64,000 nt of DNA from positions 6,413 through 70,412 of the forward strand of contig QILK01000073.1 of assembly GCA_003233345.1 (NCBI GenBank), given 5' to 3'. A model generated the notes under the pieces. It saw nothing but the letters and a program-made list of their open reading frames with translations. It was not told the origin of the DNA and ran no database searches. The DNA is from Gammaproteobacteria bacterium. GTDB taxonomy: Bacteria; Pseudomonadota; Gammaproteobacteria; SZUA-21. This document shows, one piece after another, positions 6,383-25,510 of this stretch; position 1 is the first letter of the stretch, and each line of letters opens with the position of its first letter. The position numbers and the translations under genes were made by a program.

Positions 6383-6712
6383 ATGAGCGAGGGTACTGAT
6401 AGACCAGATAAAAATCCAGACGATGGTCTGGTCGTAGAGACGGCAAAGCCAAAACTTAAACAGCCTCCAATGTTTAAGGTTGTTTTGCATAACGATGATT
6501 TTACACCGATGGAATTTGTGGTTGAAATATTAGAAACATTTTTCAGCATGAATAGGGAAAAAGCGGTACAAGTTATGCTTCATGTTCATACCAGGGGTAA
6601 AGGAGTTTGCGGAGTATTTACCCGGGATATCGCGGAGACCAAGGTTGATATGGTCAATAGGTATGCGCGTGATCATCAACATCCATTGCTGTGTGCAATG
6701 GAAGAAGTATAA
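6383..6712 (+). CDS. clpS: ATP-dependent Clp protease adaptor ClpS
   Basis: 109 aa with a ClpS core ([46 protein letters not shown]). Immediately upstream of clpA. Confidence 0.85.
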
Positions 6713-6728
6713 ATAAAGCAGGCGCTAG

Positions 6729-8990
6729 ATGCTAAGTAAAGAACTCGAAGACAGTATAAATAGAGCATTCAGTGACGCTCGAACCAAGCGGCACGAGATT
6801 ATGACAGTAGAGCACTTATTATTGGCGCTGCTGGATAATGATGCGACTACCAATGTACTACATGCGTGCGGTGCAGATTTAGATCAGCTGCGCCAGGATC
6901 TTGAAGATTTCCTTGAAGAATCGATACCGGTACTAAAACCTAATGATGTTAGAGAGCCTCAACCTTCGTTAGGGTTTACCCGTGTACTGCAACGCGCGGT
7001 ATATCACTTACAGTCATCAAGCAGCATTGAAAGCGAAGTGACAGGCCCGAATGTACTTGTGTCTATCTTTAGTGAAAAGGATTCACAAGCAATCTATTTC
7101 TTAAATAAACAGGATATCACCAGACTTGATATCGTCAACTATATTTCCCACGGCATTACCAAGTTCCAGGAAGAAGAACAAGATGATTCCATGTCGCACG
7201 AGTCAGGCGATGAACTGGAACAGGAAGTCTCCACAAAATCGGCTTTGGAAAAGTATGCATCGAATTTAAATGTGATGGCGATCAATGGCAAAATTGATCC
7301 GTTAATCGGCAGAGAACCAGAAATTTTACGTGCTACACAGATATTATGTCGACGGCGCAAGAACAACCCGATTTTAGTTGGCGAAGCAGGTGTTGGCAAG
7401 ACAGCTATCGCCGAGGGATTGGCGAAAATGATCGTTGACAAAGAAGTGCCAATGGTTTTATTGGACAGTGTTATTTATTCACTAGATCTGGGCGCGTTGG
7501 TTGCCGGTACCAAATATCGTGGTGATTTTGAAAAAAGACTTAAGGAAGTTATTTCCTGTTTGCAGGAAGAAGACGGCGCCATACTGTTTATCGATGAAAT
7601 TCACACCATTATCGGCGCCGGTTCGGCATCCGGTGGGGTGATGGATGCATCCAATTTGATTAAACCCGTGTTGGCATCAGGTGAACTCAAATGTATCGGA
7701 TCGACCACCTATCAGGAATTTCGCAATATTTTTGAAAAAGACAGGGCACTGGCGCGCCGATTCCAAAAGATTGACATTGATGAGCCAACCGTCGCCCAAA
7801 CAGTTGAAATTCTAAAAGGCTTAAAATCGCGTTTTGAAGAACACCATAAAATCACCTATAGCAATAAAGCGCTGGAAGTGGCTGCCGAATTATCGGCACG
7901 ACATATAAATGACCGTTTTTTACCGGACAAGGCTATCGATGTCATCGACGAAGCGGGTGCCAATTTTCAACTACAGCCACCGGAAGACCGGCGTGAACAT
8001 GTAGAAGTTAAAGACATTGAATCGATTGTTGCCCATATCGCGCGAATCCCGGAAAAGAGTGTTTCCGCTTCTGATAAAGAGTGTTTAAAAAATCTTGGTC
8101 GCGATTTGAAACTGGTGGTTTTTGGTCAGGATCAGGCAATCGATACGTTATCATCAGCGATCATAATGTCTCGTTCCGGTCTGGGTAATGAAGAAAAACC
8201 GATCGGGTCCTATTTGTTTGCGGGTCCCACCGGGGTCGGTAAGACCGAGGTCACCCGACAGCTTGCCCAGATCATGGGCATCGATTTGATTCGCTTTGAT
8301 ATGTCGGAATATATGGAGCGCCATACCGTTTCCCGACTCATCGGTGCACCGCCAGGCTATGTTGGATTTGATCAGGGTGGATTGTTAACCGACGCTATTA
8401 TCAAGCAACCGCATGCTGTTTTGCTGCTTGATGAAATTGAAAAAGCCCATCCCGATGTTTTTAACTTGTTATTACAAGTGATGGATCACGGTATGCTGAC
8501 GGACAATAACGGACGCAAGGCTGATTTTCGTCATGTCGTTCTGGTGATGACCACCAATGCTGGTGCTGAAGAGTTAGCGAAGCGCTCGATCGGTTTTTCT
8601 AATCAGGACAACTCGTCAGATGCGATGGAAATTATTCGTAAAATGTTTACCCCTGAATTTAGAAATCGCCTGGATACTATTATTCAATTTAAGTCGCTGG
8701 ATCCCAATACGATTAAATATGTTGTTGCAAAATTTCTGGTACAAGCAGAGACCCAACTCGAAGCCAAGGGCGTTACCCTGGACATTGATGAACCGGCCCG
8801 GGAATGGATCGCCATTAAAGGCTACGATCCTAAAATGGGCGCGAGGCCCATGGCTAGAATCATTCAGGAAACGATCAAAAAGCCTTTGGCAGAAGAAATA
8901 TTGTTTGGCAAGCTGGTCAAAGGGGGTGTTGTTACTGTCTCGGTTTCAGAAGATGAAGAGTCCCTGGTACTGGATTTTAAAGAAAAATAG
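6729..8990 (+). CDS. clpA: ATP-dependent Clp protease ATP-binding subunit ClpA
   Basis: 753 aa. Two AAA+ modules, each with Walker A (GEAGVGKTAIAEGLA; GPTGVGKTE) and Walker B, plus a Clp N-domain. Confidence 0.9.
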   Translation: MLSKELEDSINRAFSDARTKRHEIMTVEHLLLALLDNDATTNVLHACGADLDQLRQDLEDFLEESIPVLKPNDVREPQPSLGFTRVLQRAVYHLQSSSSIESEVTGPNVLVSIFSEKDSQAIYFLNKQDITRLDIVNYISHGITKFQEEEQDDSMSHESGDELEQEVSTKSALEKYASNLNVMAINGKIDPLIGREPEILRATQILCRRRKNNPILVGEAGVGKTAIAEGLAKMIVDKEVPMVLLDSVIYSLDLGALVAGTKYRGDFEKRLKEVISCLQEEDGAILFIDEIHTIIGAGSASGGVMDASNLIKPVLASGELKCIGSTTYQEFRNIFEKDRALARRFQKIDIDEPTVAQTVEILKGLKSRFEEHHKITYSNKALEVAAELSARHINDRFLPDKAIDVIDEAGANFQLQPPEDRREHVEVKDIESIVAHIARIPEKSVSASDKECLKNLGRDLKLVVFGQDQAIDTLSSAIIMSRSGLGNEEKPIGSYLFAGPTGVGKTEVTRQLAQIMGIDLIRFDMSEYMERHTVSRLIGAPPGYVGFDQGGLLTDAIIKQPHAVLLLDEIEKAHPDVFNLLLQVMDHGMLTDNNGRKADFRHVVLVMTTNAGAEELAKRSIGFSNQDNSSDAMEIIRKMFTPEFRNRLDTIIQFKSLDPNTIKYVVAKFLVQAETQLEAKGVTLDIDEPAREWIAIKGYDPKMGARPMARIIQETIKKPLAEEILFGKLVKGGVVTVSVSEDEESLVLDFKEK

Positions 8991-13832: not shown

Positions 13833-15842
13833 ATGGATATTAAAAAAACAGGTTTTGTGCGTTGCGGGATTATCGGTAGCTTCTTGTTTTTAAGTTTTTC
13901 GTTAATGGCAGCAGATGCGATAAGCAACGCAAAAAAAGCCACCCGTCTTGGACAATATAAAAAAGCATTTGAAATATTCTTATCAGCAGCACAAAAAGGT
14001 AATATCCCCGCTCAGTATCATGTCGGAACATTGTATTTGAATGGCAGAGGAATTAAAAAAGATATTAATGCTGGTGTAAAATGGACTCAGCATGCTGCGA
14101 ATGATGGTTATCCGCGAGCCCAGTATTATCTGGGAACGTTATATAATAATGGTGAACATGTAAAGGTTAATGTCAAGCTAGGAAAAAAGTGGCTGGGAAA
14201 AGCCGCTAAACAAGACTATGCACCAGCGGTCGCTAAGCTTAACGAACTGGATGAAGCGCCAGTGCATGCCCATCAGAAAAAATCGCAAGTGATGCAAGGG
14301 ACTCGCGAAGATAAAATTATTGTGGCTGTTCGCAGAGATAAACTGGATACAGTCAAAATATTACTTAGTTCAGGCGTTTCGGTCGACACCGTTGATACAG
14401 CCAGTCACAAAACGTTATTAATGATTGCGGCAGAAAAAGGGCATAATGATATTGTGTCTTTCCTATTAAAAAATCGGGCCGATGCGAGCAAAAAAGATAA
14501 AACAGGCGGAACGGCGCTTAACCATTCAATACGTAATAATCATACCAAGGCTGCGTTCCTTTTAATTCAGTGGGGTATTAAAATTGATGAACCTAACATC
14601 TATGGTCAGACGCCACTGATTATATCTGTTAAAGCTAAAAAGCTTTTACTGGTCAAAGCATTGGTCGCGAAAAAGGTTAATCTTAATAGCGTCGATAAAA
14701 AGGGTAACACCGCTCTTGACTATTCTCGTATGCTCGAACGGAAACAGATAGAGAAATTTTTATTGGATCATAAGGCGATCGCAAAAAGTACCTTGTCTAT
14801 TGTTCGCACTAACAGTAGCAATATCACCCGTGTTACGCCAACTTATAAAAACTGGACTTTATTGCTGGAGGCTTCCTGGCGAGGACAGGAAGGTTTGGTT
14901 AGCAGATTGTTAAAAAAAGGTGTGAGTATTAATAGCACCGACGAAGATGGTTATTCTGCGCTTATCCGTGCATCCTGGAAAGGGCATTTGCACATCGTGG
15001 AGATTCTGGTTGATGCCGGTGCGGATATTAATTATAAGCAAAAAAGAGGGTTGACCGCACTAATGCTGGCGGCAAAGCATAATCACGTAGAGGTCGTTAA
15101 TTATCTGCTAGCGAAAAACGCCAATGTTGAGCTACGGGATAATTCGGGGTCTAATGCCGTTATTATGGCCACAAAAAATAACAGCATAGATTCACTCAAG
15201 CGTCTGATCCGTGCCAAAGCCGATTTAAACACACGCGATAAAAGTAAACTAACGGCGCTTATGTGGGCGTCACAGAATAATAGTGTCACCATCAGTAAAA
15301 TGCTTGTGCATGGTGGTGCTCGAGTGGATATGCATGATAATAAAAGACAGGTTGCCTTGTGGCACGCAGCGCTCGCTGGATCAGAAAGGGCCTTTGATTA
15401 TTTGATGACAATAAGAATTGATATCAATAGTAAAAACAACGAAGGTGATACATTGTTAATGCGAATGGCCACTTCAGGTAAAGTGAGTATTGTTCGAAAA
15501 TTAATTAGGCGTGGTGCATCAGTAAGGCTAAAAAATAATATTGGTGATACGGCGTTAATGGCTGCCAGCGGGAAAAATAGACTAAAGGTAGTGCAAATAT
15601 TATTAACAGCCAGGTCTGATGTTAACGTAAAAAATAATATTAATAATACTGCGCTGATGATCGCGTCCAAAAAAGGCCATAGTCAGATGGTCAATTTATT
15701 GTTAAAGCATAAAGCCAGGGTCAGGATTCGCAATAAAGACAAAAAAAATGCAAGGGAACTGGCTCAGCAGGGTGGATTCAAGCGTATTGCCAAAATATTA
15801 GAAAAACATGAAAGCAATGGCGGGTTATTCGGTATTTTTTAA
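13833..15842 (+). CDS. Secreted Sel1-repeat / ankyrin-repeat fusion protein
   Basis: 669 aa with a signal peptide (FLFLSFSLMAADA). About 4 Sel1 repeats (AQYHVGTLYLNGRGIKKDINAGVKW; AQYYLGTLYNNGEHV...), then at least 12 ankyrin repeats with the recurring G-TALM-A---GH---V--LL--GA-VN pattern. Confidence 0.8.
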   Translation: MDIKKTGFVRCGIIGSFLFLSFSLMAADAISNAKKATRLGQYKKAFEIFLSAAQKGNIPAQYHVGTLYLNGRGIKKDINAGVKWTQHAANDGYPRAQYYLGTLYNNGEHVKVNVKLGKKWLGKAAKQDYAPAVAKLNELDEAPVHAHQKKSQVMQGTREDKIIVAVRRDKLDTVKILLSSGVSVDTVDTASHKTLLMIAAEKGHNDIVSFLLKNRADASKKDKTGGTALNHSIRNNHTKAAFLLIQWGIKIDEPNIYGQTPLIISVKAKKLLLVKALVAKKVNLNSVDKKGNTALDYSRMLERKQIEKFLLDHKAIAKSTLSIVRTNSSNITRVTPTYKNWTLLLEASWRGQEGLVSRLLKKGVSINSTDEDGYSALIRASWKGHLHIVEILVDAGADINYKQKRGLTALMLAAKHNHVEVVNYLLAKNANVELRDNSGSNAVIMATKNNSIDSLKRLIRAKADLNTRDKSKLTALMWASQNNSVTISKMLVHGGARVDMHDNKRQVALWHAALAGSERAFDYLMTIRIDINSKNNEGDTLLMRMATSGKVSIVRKLIRRGASVRLKNNIGDTALMAASGKNRLKVVQILLTARSDVNVKNNINNTALMIASKKGHSQMVNLLLKHKARVRIRNKDKKNARELAQQGGFKRIAKILEKHESNGGLFGIF

Positions 15843-15903: not shown

Positions 15904-16971
15904 ATGAGTATTACCTATAACAAAAAAAAGGAAAGATTAACACCGATAGTGCGTGAGCATTCTATAGAGCAGGTTTCACAGCCTCCGCGGGTTTCAGAGG
16001 CTTCACAAGGTTTAGCCGATAAGCTTCCCGACACCGCAAGCAAGCCACCAAAGAAAACCACGCAAAAGAAAACCAAACAAAAGCAAACAAAGCAAAAGAA
16101 AAAGCGCCCCGAATCAGTCATGCTTAAGTTTTTTACACTGGCATTTACTGCGCTTGTTTTATATGTGCTCTTCGATGGCTGGGTTAACCGGGTTGATGAG
16201 CGGTTTCTTCCCAATAAAGGCAGGGGGCTTTACTACGGTATTATTGGTGCGGCCATGATGGTGTTGTTATTGTTATATCCTGTCAGAAAGCACATGAGGT
16301 TTTTTAGAAAGTGGGGGAGGGTAACCTACTGGTTTCGGGCGCATATGATGCTGGGGATTATGGCACCGGTTTTGATATTGTATCATTGTGATTTTAAGTT
16401 GGGTTCATCTTGGAATAGTTTTGTGGCTTTAATGTCGATGTTTCTTGTTGTTTGTAGCGGCATTATCGGAAGATTTATATACCGACAAGTACATAATTTA
16501 AAAAATAGTCATCACTATACTTATGACCAAATGCGCAAAGTACTGGCGACAGAGAAATCAATTTTTGATCAAAGTTTCAAGTTGTCGGACGAGGCTATTA
16601 GTTTAATCAACAACTTTGAACTTTATTTGGGTAAGAAAAAGGGGGTTTTAGCGCATCTGATCTCGTTACCCATTATACACATGAAGGCCAAGGAGTATTC
16701 TGTCCGTTTAATATCCTTGATAAGGAAGCAGGTTTATAGCTCCCCTGAGTATCGCAATTTACCTCGACGTGCAAAGAAAAATATGTTTTTGGAGTATAAG
16801 GTGCTGGTGGATCGATATTTTAAAAATATTCGACGAGCAGCAAACTATTCGATTTACGAAAAACTATTTTCTTTATGGCATGTGTTGCACTTTCCGCTAT
16901 TTATCCTCCTGATATTTAGCTCTGCGCTGCATATTATTATCGGTTTTATGTATGGCTATATTCAATTCTAA
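15904..16971 (+). CDS. Integral membrane protein with polybasic N-terminus (hypothetical; first gene of the cytochrome cluster)
   Basis: 355 aa. The N-terminal about 70 aa are soluble and lysine-rich (KPPKKTTQKKTKQKQTKQKKKRP). Four or more hydrophobic helices follow, with conserved His (RAHMMLGIMAPVLILYHCDF), then a C-terminal soluble segment and a last TM helix. Confidence 0.55.
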   Translation: MSITYNKKKERLTPIVREHSIEQVSQPPRVSEASQGLADKLPDTASKPPKKTTQKKTKQKQTKQKKKRPESVMLKFFTLAFTALVLYVLFDGWVNRVDERFLPNKGRGLYYGIIGAAMMVLLLLYPVRKHMRFFRKWGRVTYWFRAHMMLGIMAPVLILYHCDFKLGSSWNSFVALMSMFLVVCSGIIGRFIYRQVHNLKNSHHYTYDQMRKVLATEKSIFDQSFKLSDEAISLINNFELYLGKKKGVLAHLISLPIIHMKAKEYSVRLISLIRKQVYSSPEYRNLPRRAKKNMFLEYKVLVDRYFKNIRRAANYSIYEKLFSLWHVLHFPLFILLIFSSALHIIIGFMYGYIQF

Positions 16972-17050
16972 TGATCGTTGCCAAGTTATAATTAATGGAA
17001 AGTAATTAAATGACGGCTCAATTGTGGTAAGTGATATCGTTAGAGCTAAA

Positions 17051-18619
17051 ATGTCTATTTATATTAAAAAATTTTTGACGATAGTCTTAATACTGTCCTC
17101 TTTTATTTCACTCAATGCATTTGCTGACCGGGTCGAAGCGTTTGTGATGCCGGGTGAGGTGATTAAAGGGCATGCCAAGCTGGAAACCAATTGTGTCAAG
17201 TGTCACAAACGATTTGATAAGAAAGCACAAACTCGATTATGTCTGGATTGCCATGATAAAATAGACGCTGTTATGAAAAAACGTAGTGGCTTTCATGGAA
17301 AATCACCGATTGTTAGGAAGAACCTGTGTAGTGCGTGTCACACTGAGCATAAAGGCCGCGATGCTGATATCATCAAGTTGGATAAACGTAATTTTAATCA
17401 TAAATTCACCAACTTTCTACTTAAAGGCCAGCATAAGAAACTTGATTGTAACAGTTGTCACCAAGCCGGTAAGAAATATACAGAGGCAAAATCGACAGTT
17501 TGTTATGGCTGTCATAAGAAAGATGACAAACACAAATTACACCTGGGTAAAAAGTGCGAAAAGTGTCACACGGAACAAAAATGGAAAAAAACCAAGTTTG
17601 ATCATGATAAAACCAAATTTAAGCTGACCGGAAAACACAAGGAAATTGTATGTGAAAGTTGTCATGCTAACGAGCGATATAAAGGTATCCCAACGAAGTG
17701 TGCAACTTGTCATAAGATTAATGATGTTCATAAGGGTAAATTAGGCGACAAATGTGACGAGTGTCATACCACCAAAAGTTGGGGGAAAATGTCATTTGAT
17801 CATGATAACGAAACTGAATTTCCGATACGAGGAAAGCATAAACAACTGAAATGTAAGGCTTGTCATAAAAAAGACCCCAAAGACGAGGAACTTGCAAAGC
17901 AATGTTACGCCTGCCATAAAGTTGACGATAAACATAAAAGTAATTTTGGCCAGAAATGTCAAACGTGTCATAGCGAAAAGGGGTGGGATCACTCGAAGTT
18001 TGATCATGACCGGGATACTAAGTTTCGATTGAAAGAAAAGCACACCAAGGCAGATTGCACAGATTGTCATAAAAAACCTTTGTACAAAACCAAGACCAGC
18101 AGCAAATGTTATAGTTGTCATAAAATCGATGATAAACACAAAGGCAGTCAGGGTAAGAATTGCCAGAAATGTCATAACGAAAAAAATTGGAAATCAAAAA
18201 TTGCCTTTGATCATGATTTTACTAAGTTCCCGCTGGTTGGATTACATGCGCTGGTAAACTGCAAAGAATGTCATACGCAGGAAAGTTTTTCCGCTACCAA
18301 AAAAAGCTGTATCAGCTGCCATAGGAAAAAGGATGTACATAAACTAAGATTGGGGACTTTTTGTGAATTATGTCATACCCCAAATGGATGGAAAATCTGG
18401 AATTTTGATCATGACCGGCAAACTGAATATCCATTAAAAGGTAAACATAAAGGTCTTAATTGCATTAAATGTCATAAACGTCCCGTGAACAAAAAGAGTA
18501 TAAAGTTGGACGCAAACTGTTCAAATTGTCATAGTCAAGACGATCCTCATGATGGAAAGTTTGGTAGCAGTTGTGCAAGTTGCCACAAAGTGTCTTCTTT
18601 TAAGGACATAGATATTTAG
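17051..18619 (+). CDS. Multiheme c-type cytochrome: 21 CxxCH motifs in seven triheme c7-like modules, lysine-rich
   Basis: The track ORF starts at GTG 17024, but ATG 17051 gives a classical signal peptide (MSIYIKKFLTIVLILSSFISLNAFA). I hand-counted 21 CxxCH motifs. There are seven repeats of about 72 aa, each shaped like FDHD-T-F-L-GKH----C--CH ... C--CHK-DD-HKG--G--C--CH. My count gives about 98 Lys (about 18%). Confidence 0.85.
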   Translation: MSIYIKKFLTIVLILSSFISLNAFADRVEAFVMPGEVIKGHAKLETNCVKCHKRFDKKAQTRLCLDCHDKIDAVMKKRSGFHGKSPIVRKNLCSACHTEHKGRDADIIKLDKRNFNHKFTNFLLKGQHKKLDCNSCHQAGKKYTEAKSTVCYGCHKKDDKHKLHLGKKCEKCHTEQKWKKTKFDHDKTKFKLTGKHKEIVCESCHANERYKGIPTKCATCHKINDVHKGKLGDKCDECHTTKSWGKMSFDHDNETEFPIRGKHKQLKCKACHKKDPKDEELAKQCYACHKVDDKHKSNFGQKCQTCHSEKGWDHSKFDHDRDTKFRLKEKHTKADCTDCHKKPLYKTKTSSKCYSCHKIDDKHKGSQGKNCQKCHNEKNWKSKIAFDHDFTKFPLVGLHALVNCKECHTQESFSATKKSCISCHRKKDVHKLRLGTFCELCHTPNGWKIWNFDHDRQTEYPLKGKHKGLNCIKCHKRPVNKKSIKLDANCSNCHSQDDPHDGKFGSSCASCHKVSSFKDIDI

Positions 18620-18939
18620 AAAAGGAGTATGCGTGTAGAAATAGAATATATAAGTTGTGCTTGGATTAATATTACTTTATATTAGACGCGTGTGGTTTTT
18701 TCACACCTCATAAAAATTGTTAGTGGTATATGAAGGTAGATCAGATACCGCTATTAGAGAGGTAAAGCAATAATATAAAATTGAATAGTTAAATGATTTA
18801 TTTAAGACTCTATGCTAGCAACCGAAATTTAGTGTGTATTACGCTTATGGACGAAATGAAATTATCAAAAATGTAATTTCATAAATACACAAATAATTAA
18901 CTGGGATAGGATTTCCCACAAAATAAAAAGCGATATCAA

Positions 18940-20688
18940 ATGGACACTTGGGAAAGGACGCTGTGCAGATTGCATTTGAGGGGCTATCTTAAGTTCCTAG
19001 TGCTTGTCCTGCTAACCTTTACCTTTCTCGTTATCTCAAATCCAGTTTCTGCTAAAAAAGTCACTCAGAAATTTAACCACGACAAAACCGGGTATACACT
19101 TGAAGGTATACATGTCTACGCGGATTGTGAAAGCTGTCATGCGCGTGGAATTTTTAAAGGCACACCTAGAACCTGTCAAGGTTGTCATGCACAAGCCGGA
19201 CGTATTACTGCTACACGAAAACCGATAAATCATATATCGTCATCTGCCGACTGTGGCCAGTGCCATACATCAACGGCTTGGAAACCGGCGAAAATTGATC
19301 ATTCAAAAATCACGGATTCCTGTAATAGTTGTCACAACGGCACAACAGCTACGGGTAAATCAAAGAATCATATTACCACCAATGCACAGTGTAACGTTTG
19401 TCATAGTTCACGTGCCTGGGTTCCGGCAAACTTTAATCATAGTACTATCACCAGTGGTTGTATTAAATGTCACAATGGCACAACCGCGATTGGGAAGACA
19501 AAAGGCAAACATCCGCCCTCGAGTAATAGTTGTGAGAGTTGTCACACGATCAATTCGTTTAGCTTTAATCATACCAATGTAAGGGGCGATTGCTTTAGTT
19601 GTCATAATGGTACGACCAGTGGCGGCAAGAAAAGCGCACGGCACGTCGTTAGCGACAACCGTTGTGAAGTTTGCCATAAGAATAATCGTGCTTGGACATT
19701 TACTCACGGTTCAGGCATCACCGGGTGTAGCAACTGCCACTCGGGCCAGACAAAAGGAAAGCAAAAAGGTGCCAAGCATATTGTTACCGTAGCGAGTTGT
19801 GAATCTTGCCATAAAAGTACCAGTACATGGACGTTTGATCACAGTAACGTAAAATCTGGATGTACAAATTGCCACCGGGGACAAACAGCCGGTAGGCAGA
19901 TAAACCCAGCTACTCATGTAAAAGTGGCGCCAACAGTAGATTGCGCGGTTTGTCACGGCAGTAATACATCATGGACTGTCAATGTCGTGGTAAACCATGC
20001 GAGTTTTACTGGTACTTGTAGCGGATGCCACAACAAGAACGCGACGCATATGCCTACTTCCAATAGCTGTGGTGGTTGTCATAAAACAACAAAAGGTGGA
20101 TTTCTAAAAGCAAATACCAATGTCGATCATCGGCAAATTACCGTTTCATGCCAGACTTGTCATACTGGCAAATATGCCACCTCAAAGAAAAGTACAACAC
20201 ATGTTGCGACGACTAACGCCTGTGCAAATTGTCACAAGTCGACTGCCCAAGGTGGTTGGCCAACGAATATAAAGATGGATCATACGCAATTGGTCGGTGC
20301 GGGTGCCTGTGCTACCTGTCATAAGACCGGTGGTGTTGGGACACCAAAGCCGCAGGTACATATGAATACCACACTGGCATGTGATATTTGCCACGACAAG
20401 ACCACGACTTGGGCTATCAGGTCGATCACTTACACCCATCAGGCCGGATTGACTCAAGGTTGGTTTAAACATGGTTCGCTTACGTCTTGTATAGACTGTC
20501 ATGCTTCCAATGGCCTTGTGCAATGGGAAACCGGTCTCTATAAGAAGTCGTGCGCTGGTTGTCATGCCAGGCAGTACGAACCGGAAAATGACCATTTACC
20601 ACCGATTACTTCGATAGAGGCTAATAAACATTGCGGTGGTACTGTACCAGGTGGTACTGGCTGTCATGGTAGAAATCGAGGGTTTTAA
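18940..20688 (+). CDS. Multiheme c-type cytochrome: 21 CxxCH motifs, Thr/Asn/Gly-rich
   Basis: 582 aa with a hydrophobic signal-like segment (LKFLVLVLLTFTFLVISNPVSA). An in-frame TTG near 18976 with a GGA before it would give a shorter, cleaner signal peptide. I hand-counted 21 CxxCH motifs. CxxCHNGTT(A)xGK and NH/KH(x5-7)CxxCH units recur, supplying the distal His needed for bis-His haems. Confidence 0.85.
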   Translation: MDTWERTLCRLHLRGYLKFLVLVLLTFTFLVISNPVSAKKVTQKFNHDKTGYTLEGIHVYADCESCHARGIFKGTPRTCQGCHAQAGRITATRKPINHISSSADCGQCHTSTAWKPAKIDHSKITDSCNSCHNGTTATGKSKNHITTNAQCNVCHSSRAWVPANFNHSTITSGCIKCHNGTTAIGKTKGKHPPSSNSCESCHTINSFSFNHTNVRGDCFSCHNGTTSGGKKSARHVVSDNRCEVCHKNNRAWTFTHGSGITGCSNCHSGQTKGKQKGAKHIVTVASCESCHKSTSTWTFDHSNVKSGCTNCHRGQTAGRQINPATHVKVAPTVDCAVCHGSNTSWTVNVVVNHASFTGTCSGCHNKNATHMPTSNSCGGCHKTTKGGFLKANTNVDHRQITVSCQTCHTGKYATSKKSTTHVATTNACANCHKSTAQGGWPTNIKMDHTQLVGAGACATCHKTGGVGTPKPQVHMNTTLACDICHDKTTTWAIRSITYTHQAGLTQGWFKHGSLTSCIDCHASNGLVQWETGLYKKSCAGCHARQYEPENDHLPPITSIEANKHCGGTVPGGTGCHGRNRGF

Positions 20689-20759: not shown

Positions 20760-23216
20760 ATGAAATCAGTCATAAGAATAGTATTGGCTTTTAGTATAAC
20801 GGTACTGGGTATCGTTAGTGGTCAAGCGCAAACTGTTACTGAAGAGTTTAACGTTTTAAAAACGCTGGAAGCACGCATTAATATTGCTGTCTCTGAATTT
20901 ACGATACATTTTAACCTGCCCGTAAACTACTTGGGTCATTCGCCAACAAAAGAAGGCAAACACATTATTATTCGTGTTGCCCCAATCGGTCGAAACCCCC
21001 GGGATGTAACCGGATTTACTTCAAGTACCGCTTTGAATAATCCAATGAGTTTTGGTGGAAGGGAAGTTTTGTCCTGGACCGCGACCAAAGAGCTGCCTTT
21101 AACGGAAGTGGAATATGAAGGCACCAATATTGGTGGACCGATTATTGAAGTCAGTTTCACGCGTAGTGTTAAATACAAAGTTGTCCCAAGTAAGGATTTG
21201 CGTAGTCTGACTATTCTGGTCGAAAACGAGAAGCAGGCAAAAAGCACATCTAAGCATAACTACTTGCTTAACCTGTCGACTTCGGGAAAACCCTTTGATG
21301 TTACCAGTTTGGACACTGGAAAATTTCCAGAAAACTATGTTTTTTTCCCTACCCATAGTGTAGTCGACAACAAGTCCGTCAATCACCTGAAAGTGGGGTT
21401 TTTTAAAACCCCAAGGGATATTCGTGAAGCCCTTAAAAAGTTAAAACCCTATTATCCAGATGCAAAGGTAATGTTATCAACGGATGAGGATATAAAGGTT
21501 GCAAAACAATACCAGCGAGATCAGAAGCTAATCGCTAAAACAACACCACTAAAAACCCCCGCCCCCGGAAAAGAATCACCGGCGATAGCAAGTAATTCGC
21601 GCGATATTATGGAAAAGGCAAAGTTTACTTTGCTAGAGGGCAATTATGATAAAGCAATTGAGCAATATACCGTCGTGATTCAAAAAGATCCGAATGGCCA
21701 ATATGCACAGGAAGCCCAGGAATACCTGGGATTAACCCGGCAGCGTAATAATCAGGTTGCCCATGCAATTGCAGAATACAAAAAATATTTGCAAAAATAT
21801 CCGCAAGGCGAGGGCGCCACGCGTGTTAAGCAGCGTCTTAATTCCTTATTAACCGCGTCACATGATCCGCGAGGGAAATTACCGGGGACTACGACGGAAG
21901 ATAAAAAATCACCTTGGCGGCTCTATGGAAATGTTTATGGTAATATCAGGTACGATAATTCTAAAACCGTTATCAAGGCTACTAATACTAAAATCAAAAA
22001 TCAGACGACCACTTATGTTACCAGTTTAAATGCGACTGCCAGAAAAAGAACAGAAAAAAGTGAGACAAAAATACGATTCACTGGTATATATCGAGATGCG
22101 GATGATGGTACAAATCGCAATAACAGAAGTGGACGCGTTAACTATTTTTATGTAGACCATAAAGATAAAGTGCGTAATTATGGTTACCGTATTGGTCGTC
22201 AGGCAAAAAGTAGCGGTGGCGTCTTGGGCCGTTTTGATGGCATATCGGTGGATTATAAAATTAGTTCGCGTTATAAGGTTAACTTCGTTTCTGGTTACCC
22301 CGTCAATTTTACCAAATTTGGACAAATTGAAACTAACCGTTATTTTTATGGTGTTAACACTGACATTTCCACCAAGAATAAATATTTGACTTTTAATGTA
22401 TTTGCTATCAATCAGGTTATTGATGGTATTAGTGATCGGGAGTCAATCGGTGGCGAGGTTCGCTATATGAACCCGAAGCACTCATTGTTTGCATTGGTTG
22501 ATTACGACCATTCTTATCAGGAATTAAATACTGTCTTCGTTTCCAATAACTGGCGCTTTAAAAATAAGGCGGTTGTTAATGTAACTTATGATTATAGAAG
22601 AAGCCCAGTATTAACAACTAGTAATGCGTTGCAAGGGCAGACGGAAGGATCAATAAAAGAGCTTTTACGTCGACTTAGCGAGAGCCAGATCAGACAGTTA
22701 GCCCGTGATCGTACGGCGACCTACAAATCGGTATCGGTGGGAGGCACTTATCCACTTGCCCATGACTTGTATCTAAACGGAAATGTTACGGTTGCTGAGC
22801 TCGAAGGTACAGTTGCGTCGGGTAATGTTGCGGCTGTTCCTGATAGTAGTCAAGAATATTTTTATTCACTACAATTAATAAAAAACAGTTGGTTAAAGGC
22901 CGGTGATGTATCAATATTTGGTATTCAGTTTGCTGATGCAACAACTTATCAGCGGACATCCTATTCGTATGGCATCCGCTATCCTCTAACACCCAGAATC
23001 CGAATTCGTCCAAAGTTTGAATATGATGTACAGGATATAAATGACGGCACTGAAGTCACTACCTACCGCCCCTCTTTACGTGTTGATTATCGTGCGAGCA
23101 ATAGATGGCGTTGGGAACTGGAAAGCGGCTATTCATATGCTGAAATCAGGAATTCTGCCAGTGACAGCGATCAGACCGATTACTTTATCAGTATGGGCTT
23201 TATTTATGATTTCTAA
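20760..23216 (+). CDS. Outer-membrane protein: N-terminal domain, TPR-like repeats, C-terminal beta-barrel (putative porin partner of the cytochromes)
   Basis: 818 aa with a signal peptide (MKSVIRIVLAFSITVLGIVSGQA). TPR-like helical repeats lie in residues about 290-370 (YDKAIEQYTVVIQKDPNGQYAQEAQEYLGLT...AIAEYKKYLQKYPQGEGAT). The C-terminal about 440 aa show alternating hydrophobic/polar amphipathic beta-strand periodicity and end in ...GFIYDF, the aromatic C-terminal residue used as a BAM signal. Confidence 0.7.
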   Translation: MKSVIRIVLAFSITVLGIVSGQAQTVTEEFNVLKTLEARINIAVSEFTIHFNLPVNYLGHSPTKEGKHIIIRVAPIGRNPRDVTGFTSSTALNNPMSFGGREVLSWTATKELPLTEVEYEGTNIGGPIIEVSFTRSVKYKVVPSKDLRSLTILVENEKQAKSTSKHNYLLNLSTSGKPFDVTSLDTGKFPENYVFFPTHSVVDNKSVNHLKVGFFKTPRDIREALKKLKPYYPDAKVMLSTDEDIKVAKQYQRDQKLIAKTTPLKTPAPGKESPAIASNSRDIMEKAKFTLLEGNYDKAIEQYTVVIQKDPNGQYAQEAQEYLGLTRQRNNQVAHAIAEYKKYLQKYPQGEGATRVKQRLNSLLTASHDPRGKLPGTTTEDKKSPWRLYGNVYGNIRYDNSKTVIKATNTKIKNQTTTYVTSLNATARKRTEKSETKIRFTGIYRDADDGTNRNNRSGRVNYFYVDHKDKVRNYGYRIGRQAKSSGGVLGRFDGISVDYKISSRYKVNFVSGYPVNFTKFGQIETNRYFYGVNTDISTKNKYLTFNVFAINQVIDGISDRESIGGEVRYMNPKHSLFALVDYDHSYQELNTVFVSNNWRFKNKAVVNVTYDYRRSPVLTTSNALQGQTEGSIKELLRRLSESQIRQLARDRTATYKSVSVGGTYPLAHDLYLNGNVTVAELEGTVASGNVAAVPDSSQEYFYSLQLIKNSWLKAGDVSIFGIQFADATTYQRTSYSYGIRYPLTPRIRIRPKFEYDVQDINDGTEVTTYRPSLRVDYRASNRWRWELESGYSYAEIRNSASDSDQTDYFISMGFIYDF

Positions 23217-24742: not shown

Positions 24743-25510
24743 ATGAATTCAAAACTTATTATTTTGTGGTTAAGCCTGGTTTTTTCATCGTACAGCCATT
24801 CGCAGAATTTATCTAATTCAACGGTGCCCGTTGCTGATAGGCTTCCTTCGGTGTCTGTAAATGACACGTCTAAGAGCAAACTTAATAGCGTTAAAGATAC
24901 ACTTAGCCCGGCTCAGTCTTATCTCAGTTGGAAGGCAGCAGCAGAAAAGGGTGATACTAATTCTCAATATAATCTGGGTCTTGTTTATGAGCAAGGATTG
25001 GGTACAGCCGTTGATCTGCAACAAGCAGCACGTTGGTATAAAAAGGCATCCATGCAGGGACACGCTGTTGCAGCATATAATCTAGCCACAATGGCTCACC
25101 AGGGCCACGGAATGAAGGCAGATATAAAAATGGCGAAGCATTGGTACGAATTTGCTGCCAAAAAAGGCTATTTACTTGCTCAGGCCAGTCTCGGGTTTTT
25201 GTATGCAACAGAAAACACACCTTTTACCGATGTAAAGAAAGCGGTTTACTGGTTTAACAGAGCGGCCAAGCTCGGTCATCCAGAGGCTCAGTTTAATCTT
25301 GGTATGATGTATTCTACTGGCAGAGGAATAGAACTTGATTATATCAAAGCTTATGCTTGGTTCAATGTATCAGGATTTAACCGTTACAAAAATGCGATTG
25401 AAAGTCGAAATTTTGCGGCCGCCCGGCTTACTGTAAAGCAACTTGAATCAGCCCAGGCTCTATCGAATCACTATCGCGAACTCTACTTTAAGAAGCAAAC
25501 GCCTAAATAG
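24743..25510 (+). CDS. Secreted Sel1-repeat protein
   Basis: 255 aa with a signal peptide (LIILWLSLVFSSYSHS). About 5 Sel1 repeats (SQYNLGLVYEQGLGTAVDLQQAARWYKKA; AAYNLATMAHQGHGMKADIKMAKHWYEFAAKKG; AQFNLGMMYSTGRGIELDYIKAYAWFN). Confidence 0.75.
   Translation: MNSKLIILWLSLVFSSYSHSQNLSNSTVPVADRLPSVSVNDTSKSKLNSVKDTLSPAQSYLSWKAAAEKGDTNSQYNLGLVYEQGLGTAVDLQQAARWYKKASMQGHAVAAYNLATMAHQGHGMKADIKMAKHWYEFAAKKGYLLAQASLGFLYATENTPFTDVKKAVYWFNRAAKLGHPEAQFNLGMMYSTGRGIELDYIKAYAWFNVSGFNRYKNAIESRNFAAARLTVKQLESAQALSNHYRELYFKKQTPK

Follow-up and report, generated by a model that had tools for sequence, protein, structure and literature searches.

A 22-strand outer-membrane barrel protein with predicted AMIN, SPOR and TPR domains as the probable porin of a PCC3-type porin-cytochrome cluster

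The 818-aa outer-membrane protein encoded at 20760..23216 (+ strand) of the 64,000-nt window (the whole stretch of DNA analysed) is probably the outer-membrane component ('porin') of a PCC3-type porin-cytochrome system. Its gene was the last of five co-directional genes, which encoded, in this order, a Sel1/ankyrin-repeat protein, a membrane protein, two cytochromes of 21 haems each and the barrel protein. The PCC3 cluster was named, and predicted to be a trans-envelope electron carrier, by He et al. 2017 (PMC5566968), and a 2025 preprint still described it as functionally unverified.

The barrel gene and its homologues

The barrel gene was assigned from its open reading frame, its homologues and an AlphaFold2 model. 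The frame started with ATG and ended with the C-terminus ...GFIYDF and a stop codon, exactly as given in an earlier note on this DNA, and the terminal Phe was nearly invariant in 58 homologues. The ATG was located 71 bp downstream of the second cytochrome gene (18940-20688); both this gap and the 21 CxxCH motifs of the neighbouring gene, reported in the same note, were reproduced on recounting. A database search with the barrel protein gave 158 homologues (E <= 0.001), many of them at E < 1e-100, and a scan of species-representative genomes gave at least 503 candidate stretches with relatives. No rRNA, tRNA or Rfam matches were found in the 64,000-nt window.

Domain structure of the barrel protein

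The AlphaFold2 model of the barrel protein had a mean pLDDT of 84.7. The signal peptide, TPR-like region and strand-rich C-terminus described earlier were all retained in the model, whereas the N-terminal domain of ~280 aa was resolved into two domains. The signal peptide (residues 1–24, MKSVIRIVLAFSITVLGIVSGQAQ; 20760..20831, + strand) was read from the sequence; in the model it appeared as a helix, after which came a linker of low confidence. Residues 33–155 (20856..21224, + strand) formed a β-sandwich in the model, and its AMIN fold was recognised by fold search alone; the profile of the N-terminal domain gave no match when compared with PDB sequences. Residues 168–259 (21261..21536, + strand) formed a SPOR-like domain with the β-α-β-β-α-β topology expected of the SPOR fold. 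The Pfam SPOR family (PF05036) matched 49 of 58 aligned homologues, at positions that map to residues 188–238 of the window protein. In the window protein itself, Pfam detected neither AMIN (PF11741) nor SPOR, and PF05036 gave no match at E <= 0.1. As modelled, the N-terminal region of ~280 aa is composed of an AMIN-fold domain and a SPOR-like domain, a predicted peptidoglycan-binding module.

The YbgF/CpoB-like TPR domain (residues 280–365; 21597..21854, + strand) contained five TPR-like helices and was the best-conserved periplasmic part of the protein. Its Pfam and NCBIfam scores were below the curated cut-offs but consistent (TIGR03302 BamD, 2.6e-9; YbgF, 1.2e-8).

The C-terminal domain (residues 386–818; 21915..23213, + strand), ending in YDF, formed a β-barrel of 22 strands, modelled with high confidence over residues 386–817, which bore out the barrel suggested in the earlier note. 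The structural matches of this part were generic only. The outer loops of the barrel were very short, and the highest conservation within the protein was found in the barrel motifs. The most conserved barrel segment (0.67) was a 37-residue insert between strands 13 and 14 (residues 616–652; 22605..22715, + strand), which carried the motif R.SP.LTTSNALQGQ, formed three short helices in the model and was placed on the outer side by topology.

The partner genes and assignment to PCC3

The membrane protein (15904..16971, + strand) is a putative dihaem-b protein of the inner membrane, with the motifs WFRAH-13-H (residue 143), SGIIG (residue 185) and WHVLH-13-H (residue 325), which were kept in all 46 of 46 homologues. 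These are two WX3HX13H motifs and one SGXXG motif, as reported for the membrane proteins of PCC3 and PCC4 (PMC5566968). The PCC3 protein is described in the same paper as ~300 aa long with five transmembrane helices, SGXXG being located in helix 4 and WX3HX13H in helices 3 and 5, whereas a crude hydropathy scan of the window protein gave four clear helices.

The cytochrome encoded at 17024..18619 (+ strand) corresponded to the PCC3 'periplasmic' cytochrome. Its 531 aa contained 21 CxxCH motifs (ratio 25), arranged in seven groups of three with starts ~67 residues apart. The published PCC3 periplasmic cytochrome has a median of 21 haems, repeats and a low amino-acid-to-haem ratio (He et al. 2017, PMC5566968), and that of the Riftia symbiont has seven repeats of 66 aa. 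The window protein shared 39–49% identity with 21-haem proteins from distant loci, and exactly 21 haems were counted in 39 ORFs of this type among the related loci. The actual start of this gene may be the ATG at 17051.

The second cytochrome (582 aa, 21 CxxCH; 18940..20688, + strand) matched Pfam Cytochrome_C7 and related families and corresponded to the PCC3 'extracellular' cytochrome, a location predicted from the PCC3 description. It had an ordinary signal peptide without a lipobox and was rich in Thr, Ser, Gly and Asn by eye, in agreement with the PCC3 second cytochrome, which is rich in Thr, Ser, Ala and Gly (PMC5566968). Its homologues directly 5' of the barrel gene in related loci carried 11–73 haems, the largest having 73 haems in 1825 aa. 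With its 21 haems, the window protein was short when compared with the PCC3 median of 34. BLAST alignments of this highly repetitive protein fell into many registers, so that a comparison of its two ends for conservation, as a clue to the part entering the barrel, was uninformative.

The gene set of the window matched PCC3 (He et al. 2017, PMC5566968; Hoover et al. 2023, PMC10734462) in the type and order of four genes, and the host groups, marine Gammaproteobacteria, tubeworm symbionts and Amphritea, were common to both. A PCC3 of Amphritea atlantica with cytochromes of 21 and 63 haems was reported by He et al. 2017 (PMC5566968), and an Amphritea locus found with the barrel profile (L080) encoded cytochromes of 21 and 63 haems. 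The cluster was also found in a tubeworm symbiont (L056) and in Sedimenticola, and homology of the barrel gene to the published porins is indicated by the Amphritea and tubeworm-symbiont loci. The assignment was made from cluster genes, motifs, haem counts and these loci. The arrangement, for which an unusual porin sheath was one possible role in the earlier note, probably belongs to a known system present in hundreds of genomes, PCC3 of He et al. 2017.

Several features differed from the published description. Up to 42 transmembrane regions were predicted in the published porin (40 in the Riftia symbiont), whereas the window protein had 22 strands in addition to the AMIN, SPOR and TPR domains, which are not mentioned for the porin in the PCC3 accounts PMC5566968 and PMC10734462. 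The cytochrome survey PMC11475568 gave no detail on a barrel of PCC3 type, and the system in the Methylobacter electrode paper was of the MtrAB type, not PCC3. The secreted Sel1 and ankyrin-repeat protein (669 aa; 13833..15842, + strand; Pfam Ank and Sel1) is absent from the published four-gene set; its homologues carried signal peptides, extended to distant loci and were present in 32 of 49 related loci. A ferredoxin-flavoprotein gene occurred in 40 of 49 related loci, but a search of the window for this gene found none. Neither the periplasmic domain architecture nor these two additional conserved partners seem to have been reported so far.

Conservation of the locus

Of the 49 related loci compared, each with 6 kb or more of upstream DNA, 46 kept the order of membrane protein, 21-haem cytochrome, variable cytochrome (11–73 haems) and barrel. 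The adjacency seen earlier in the window alone held across genomes, with the barrel gene directly following two multihaem cytochrome genes and a gene for a dihaem-type membrane protein. It persisted where the barrels were 29–36% identical and extended to Myxococcota, Thermodesulfobacteriota and Nitrospirota.

Comparison with MtrB and alternative functions

The barrel protein resembles MtrB of the Shewanella MtrCAB complex (Edwards et al. 2020, PMC7198977) in the proposed insulation of a multihaem cytochrome by a barrel and in the position of its gene beside those of its cytochromes. Of the 26 strands of MtrB, 22 contact MtrA; its aperture on the periplasmic side is ~30 Å, and MtrA measures ~80 x 30 x 35 Å (PMC7198977); the barrel of the window protein had 22 strands. 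The outer loops of MtrB extend ~45 Å and periplasmic domains are absent, whereas the window protein had very short loops and ~360 periplasmic residues. No MtrB-family match to the barrel protein was found in Pfam or NCBIfam, and MtrB was absent among the top structural matches. The decaheme NCBIfam models matched the neighbouring cytochrome below their cut-offs only, and none matched the barrel protein. The lack of a family match, the 22 strands and the 21-haem partners in place of a decahaem MtrA speak against an MtrB/PioB/MtoB porin.

The peptidoglycan-binding folds and YbgF-like TPR domain of the periplasmic half would also suit a general tether between the outer membrane and peptidoglycan, similar to YbgF/CpoB, Pal or OmpA, with the cytochromes as mere neighbours. 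Some homologues are named 'tol-pal system YbgF family protein' in databases, and one homologue (L058) had no cytochrome neighbours. However, adjacency to the cytochromes and membrane protein in 46 of 49 loci across phyla is far beyond chance and argues against mere neighbourhood, tethering needs no 433-residue barrel of 22 strands, and the barrel motifs were the most conserved in the protein; such a role is very improbable. The known proteins that share these folds, the PilQ secretin and AmiC (AMIN), FtsN-type SPOR proteins and YbgF/CpoB, have no fusion to a 22-strand barrel and no link to cytochromes. It is unlikely that the barrel serves solely to export or assemble the long extracellular cytochrome, in the manner of a chaperone-usher pore or a Slam translocon, and has no permanent place in the electron path. 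The outside cytochrome, which in related loci is as large as 1825 aa with 73 haems, must somehow cross the membrane, short outer loops suit such a passage, and weak TPR_Slam matches were obtained with the window protein and three homologues. The usher and Slam similarity was nevertheless generic (TM-score at most 0.31 when normalised to the window protein, 7–10% identity), and the cluster contained no chaperone or energy-coupling gene. Slam substrates are lipoproteins, whereas the second cytochrome had an ordinary signal peptide. Slam itself, which has a TPR_Slam N-terminal domain and a 14-strand DUF560 barrel, was rejected on the TPR_Slam score (E 0.026, 15 bits against a cut-off of 35), the strand number and the missing lipobox of the neighbouring cytochrome. 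Export and a sheath around the cytochrome are also compatible, as threading could end in a stalled, permanent complex of the kind proposed for MtrA in MtrB (PMC7198977).

The plan of TPR helices followed by an outer-membrane barrel is shared with exopolysaccharide exporters of the PgaA/BcsC/AlgK-AlgE type, and AlgE was among the Foldseek matches (E about 2e-9). The barrels of polysaccharide exporters have 16–18 strands, against 22 here, and their TPR part is far longer. The TPR-like region noted earlier was confirmed, but its likeness to PgaA and BcsC was not: the five helices were of the YbgF type, resembling YbgF/CpoB and BamD rather than a long array. The barrel protein had no Pfam or NCBIfam match to BcsC, PgaA, AlgE or AlgK, a PDB sequence search returned TPR matches only, and the AlgE likeness was generic, so that homology to the exporters, which the earlier note had named as the finding that would overturn its proposal, had no specific match by family or structure. 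In agreement with that note, no polysaccharide synthase or glycosyltransferase was present in the window, and no polysaccharide synthase operon was linked to the barrel family in the 49 loci, where the conserved context was one of cytochromes. An exporter of this type is close to refuted and can hardly be considered.

Proposed role of the PCC3 porin

The most likely role of the barrel protein, judged from the model and the gene context, would be that of a cell-wall-anchored barrel letting a haem wire cross the outer membrane. The barrel would provide the passage for the haem chain as MtrB does for MtrA, with one end of a cytochrome wire inside it, shielded from lipid, and the variable-length second cytochrome reaching outside the cell. 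With outer loops as short as these the mouth would stay open, and a thin haem wire could thread through without being trapped. Since the 22-strand barrel is smaller than MtrB, the fit of a haem domain may be tight, and part of the pore could be blocked by the conserved insert (residues 616–652). The barrel may be fixed to peptidoglycan through AMIN and SPOR, and the TPR domain may serve as a dock for the 21-haem wire of the periplasm or for the ankyrin protein. Such anchoring and docking would hold the whole conduit, from the inner-membrane haem-b protein to the surface, in register. Electrons may move through it either inward, from Fe(II), minerals or cathodes, or outward to external acceptors.

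A bolder proposal, tentative at best, is that PCC3, rather than a quinone-linked porin-cytochrome pair, is one rigid machine, anchored to peptidoglycan and extending through the entire envelope, whose inner end is usually cytoplasmic NAD(P)H. Electrons would pass from the membrane-anchored ferredoxin-flavoprotein to the dihaem-b membrane protein, as in a split NADPH oxidase. From there the 21-haem wire would cross the periplasm, with the secreted ankyrin protein and the TPR domain of the barrel protein keeping it in place, and the exit pore would be fastened to the cell wall through AMIN and SPOR. The lineage of the window, which has no flavoprotein gene, would be a variant with another inner partner.

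PCC3 clusters are present in bacteria that oxidise sulfur or iron, in symbionts of animals and in bacteria of sediments, and some of their products rank among the most haem-rich proteins known. A source of the electrons is suggested by the two conserved partners, the ferredoxin-flavoprotein and the ankyrin protein. The 22-strand barrel with its predicted peptidoglycan-binding and TPR domains offers concrete experimental handles, such as the binding of these domains to the cytochromes and fixation to the wall. For annotation, hundreds of proteins named 'TPR repeat protein', 'SPOR domain protein' or 'YbgF family protein' would become recognisable as probable parts of cytochrome conduits.

Organization of the gene cluster

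The barrel gene was located at positions 20760–23216 (+) of the window. The 818-aa ORF described in the earlier note was confirmed, with 818 codons, an ATG start and the C-terminus ...GFIYDF, as was its position 71 bp after the gene for a 21-haem cytochrome of 582 aa, in which CxxCH occurs 21 times (second cytochrome, 18940–20688, +). Four genes lie upstream, all co-directional with the barrel gene: a Sel1 and ankyrin-repeat protein with a signal peptide (13833–15842, +), a membrane protein that matches no Pfam family (15904–16971, +), the first cytochrome (17024–18619, +), which has 531 aa, 21 CxxCH motifs and a seven-repeat pattern, and the second cytochrome. For the first cytochrome, the listed start is a GTG nine codons 5' of an ATG (MSIYIKKFLTIVLILSS..., window 17024–17051), which is probably the true start because it opens a typical signal peptide. 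The two cytochrome genes are separated by a 320-bp AT-rich gap (18620–18939), which may contain an internal promoter or regulatory element; elsewhere in the cluster the spacing is 52–71 bp. Downstream of the barrel gene, at a distance of 1.5 kb, lies the gene for a second, small secreted Sel1-repeat protein of 255 aa (24743–25510, +), whose counterpart in L001, the closest syntenic relative, has 248 aa. The remainder of the window contains housekeeping genes (mnmA, icd, clpA, aat/ate, rne, the fab cluster and fad genes).

Predicted structure of the barrel protein

In profile scans, TPR signals were found at residues 280–360, all below threshold (best, BamD TIGR03302 at 2.6e-9 and YbgF at 1.2e-8), and the C-terminal 440 residues gave no match. 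TPR proteins were the sole matches in a PDB sequence search. An AlphaFold2 model built from a 58-sequence alignment had a mean pLDDT of 84.7, with most of the barrel part above 90. The model is composed of an N-terminal signal peptide, a β-sandwich (AMIN-like fold, residues 33–155), a β-α-β-β-α-β domain (SPOR-like, residues 168–259), five TPR-like helices (residues 280–365) and 22 β-strands (residues 386–817), strands 13 and 14 being separated by a helical insert of 37 residues. Pfam SPOR was matched in 49 of the 58 homologues, at positions corresponding to residues 188–238 of the window protein. By topology, the outward-facing loops are those after odd-numbered strands. Most of them span 2–6 residues; three are longer, at 12, 37 and 17 residues. 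The predicted architecture is an AMIN-like fold, a SPOR-like domain, a YbgF-like TPR domain and a 22-strand barrel with short outer loops. The motif RQxxSGGVLGRFDG (residues 480–494) and the beginning of the 37-residue insert showed the highest conservation in the entire protein, and the TPR domain was the best-conserved periplasmic part.

The N-terminal module is swapped among the family variants P0067, P0110 (about 690 aa) and P0061 (978 aa), and the TPR-plus-barrel core is retained throughout (39% identity over 570 residues). Some variants have a clear Pfam AMIN domain immediately ahead of the TPR part, without SPOR; in one, SPOR is matched in two stretches and there are additional TPR helices.

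Conservation of the gene neighbourhood

When one genome per species was scanned, at least 503 stretches encoded a relative of the barrel protein. Among the best 80 of these, marine or sediment Gammaproteobacteria predominate, and Desulfuromonadaceae, Thermodesulfobacteriota, Myxococcota and Nitrospirota are also included. The same neighbours surround homologues down to 29–33% identity, in Sedimenticola, one unclassified Pseudomonadota genome, one Myxococcota genome and a metagenome contig. Gene order was counted by script over all loci and is reported for the 49 whose sequence extends 6 kb or more upstream. In 46 of them, one strand carries, in this order, the genes for the membrane protein, the 21-haem cytochrome, the variable cytochrome and the barrel, so the link between barrel and cytochromes proposed earlier was right. 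In one further locus (L005), the three genes are present but divergently oriented. The sole clear exception is L058 (CP070738.1, Gammaproteobacteria bin397), where neither cytochromes nor the membrane-protein gene were found within 9 kb of the homologue; this 971-aa protein stands alone (L058:9359–12274).

Across the related loci, 39 ORFs for the first cytochrome have exactly 21 haems and three have 24; the haem count of the second cytochrome runs from 11 to 73. The 73 haems belong to a 1825-aa protein of a Sedimenticolaceae genome (L060:4522–9999); the 21-haem second cytochrome of the window is near the short end of this range. In the public annotation of L001, the 21-haem cytochrome gene (6440–8053, +) is uncalled and an antisense 484-aa ORF (6566–8020, −) is called instead; Lys/Cys/His-rich repeat cytochromes seem prone to such miscalling.

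Identification as PCC3

The predicted porin-cytochrome cluster PCC3 has four parts (He et al. 2017, PMC5566968): a putative porin, two multihaem cytochromes and a membrane protein. One cytochrome, termed 'extracellular', is enriched in Thr, Ser, Ala and Gly; the other, termed 'periplasmic', carries a median of 21 haems. The membrane protein is ~300 aa long and has five helices, an SGXXG motif and two copies of WX3HX13H. The membrane protein of the window contains two WX3HX13H motifs and SGIIG, and the motifs are likewise present in 46 of 46 homologues. The PCC3 cytochromes of Amphritea atlantica have 63 and 21 haems (He et al. 2017, PMC5566968), and the Amphritea locus found with the barrel profile (L080) encodes cytochromes of exactly 21 and 63 haems, the latter at L080:5244–10001. 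The Riftia-symbiont PCC3 cytochrome, with seven 66-aa repeats and 21 haems (He et al. 2017, PMC5566968), agrees with the seven-repeat pattern of the first cytochrome. On these correspondences, the barrel gene was assigned as the putative outer-membrane component of PCC3. Transmembrane regions predicted for PCC3 porins number 22 in Leptothrix, 40 in the Riftia symbiont and up to 42 elsewhere (PMC5566968); the larger counts most likely include strands of periplasmic β-domains.

Additional conserved partners

A gene of ~435 aa adjoins the ankyrin gene in 40 of the 49 loci, for example at L006:14566–15864 (−) and L002:1122–2432 (+). In its product, a membrane anchor at the N-terminus precedes positive charges, a pair of [4Fe-4S] ferredoxin motifs and a flavoprotein domain resembling thioredoxin reductase, YpdA and ferredoxin-NADP reductase. 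He et al. 2017, searched for this gene, does not mention it for PCC3 and proposes a quinone link at the inner end (PMC5566968). The co-occurrence of the ferredoxin-flavoprotein with a dihaem-b-type membrane protein points to a possible inner end linked to NAD(P)H, instead of or besides the quinone link. Neither the window nor L001 has the gene, which is therefore relevant to the PCC3 family, not to the window locus.

The secreted ankyrin protein, in which Sel1 repeats are combined with some 14 ankyrin repeats, also belongs to the conserved cluster (32 of 49 loci) and is homologous even in Myxococcota. To our knowledge, ankyrin proteins are uncommon in the periplasm. Could it be a scaffold or chaperone of the haem wires?

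Proposed role of the barrel

By analogy with MtrB and MtrA, the barrel most likely forms the passage of a haem wire across the outer membrane. MtrB has 26 strands, 22 of which contact MtrA, and a periplasmic-side aperture of ~30 Å for an MtrA cross-section of ~30 × 35 Å (PMC7198977). The long outer loops of MtrB trap MtrA, whereas those of the barrel protein are very short, which would suit a wire running right through the barrel. TonB-dependent receptors have barrels of 22-strand size that house a plug of roughly 150 residues, so there could be room, if tight, for a thin haem domain. Anchoring of the pore to peptidoglycan would fall to the AMIN and SPOR domains, and the TPR domain would be the likely place where the 21-haem wire or the ankyrin protein docks.

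An export-only channel has some support from usher-like fold matches and weak TPR_Slam matches, but specific similarity, a lipoprotein substrate and helper genes are lacking; this role and that of a permanent sheath are mutually compatible. A pure tethering protein would leave both the conserved barrel and the conserved cytochrome context unexplained. Polysaccharide export is essentially excluded, since family matches are absent, the strand number of such exporters differs from 22, the TPR part here is short and the window contains no synthase.

The system to which the barrel is assigned is already named (PCC3) and widespread, and still hypothetical. PCC3 has been modelled with AlphaFold2 and drawn as a large MtrCAB-like complex (PMC10734462), and later papers still call it functionally unverified. 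The PCC3 texts searched do not mention TPR, SPOR, peptidoglycan or ankyrin. The present analysis adds to the published PCC3 a resolved, model-based architecture of the barrel protein and two further conserved partners, the ankyrin protein and the ferredoxin-flavoprotein.
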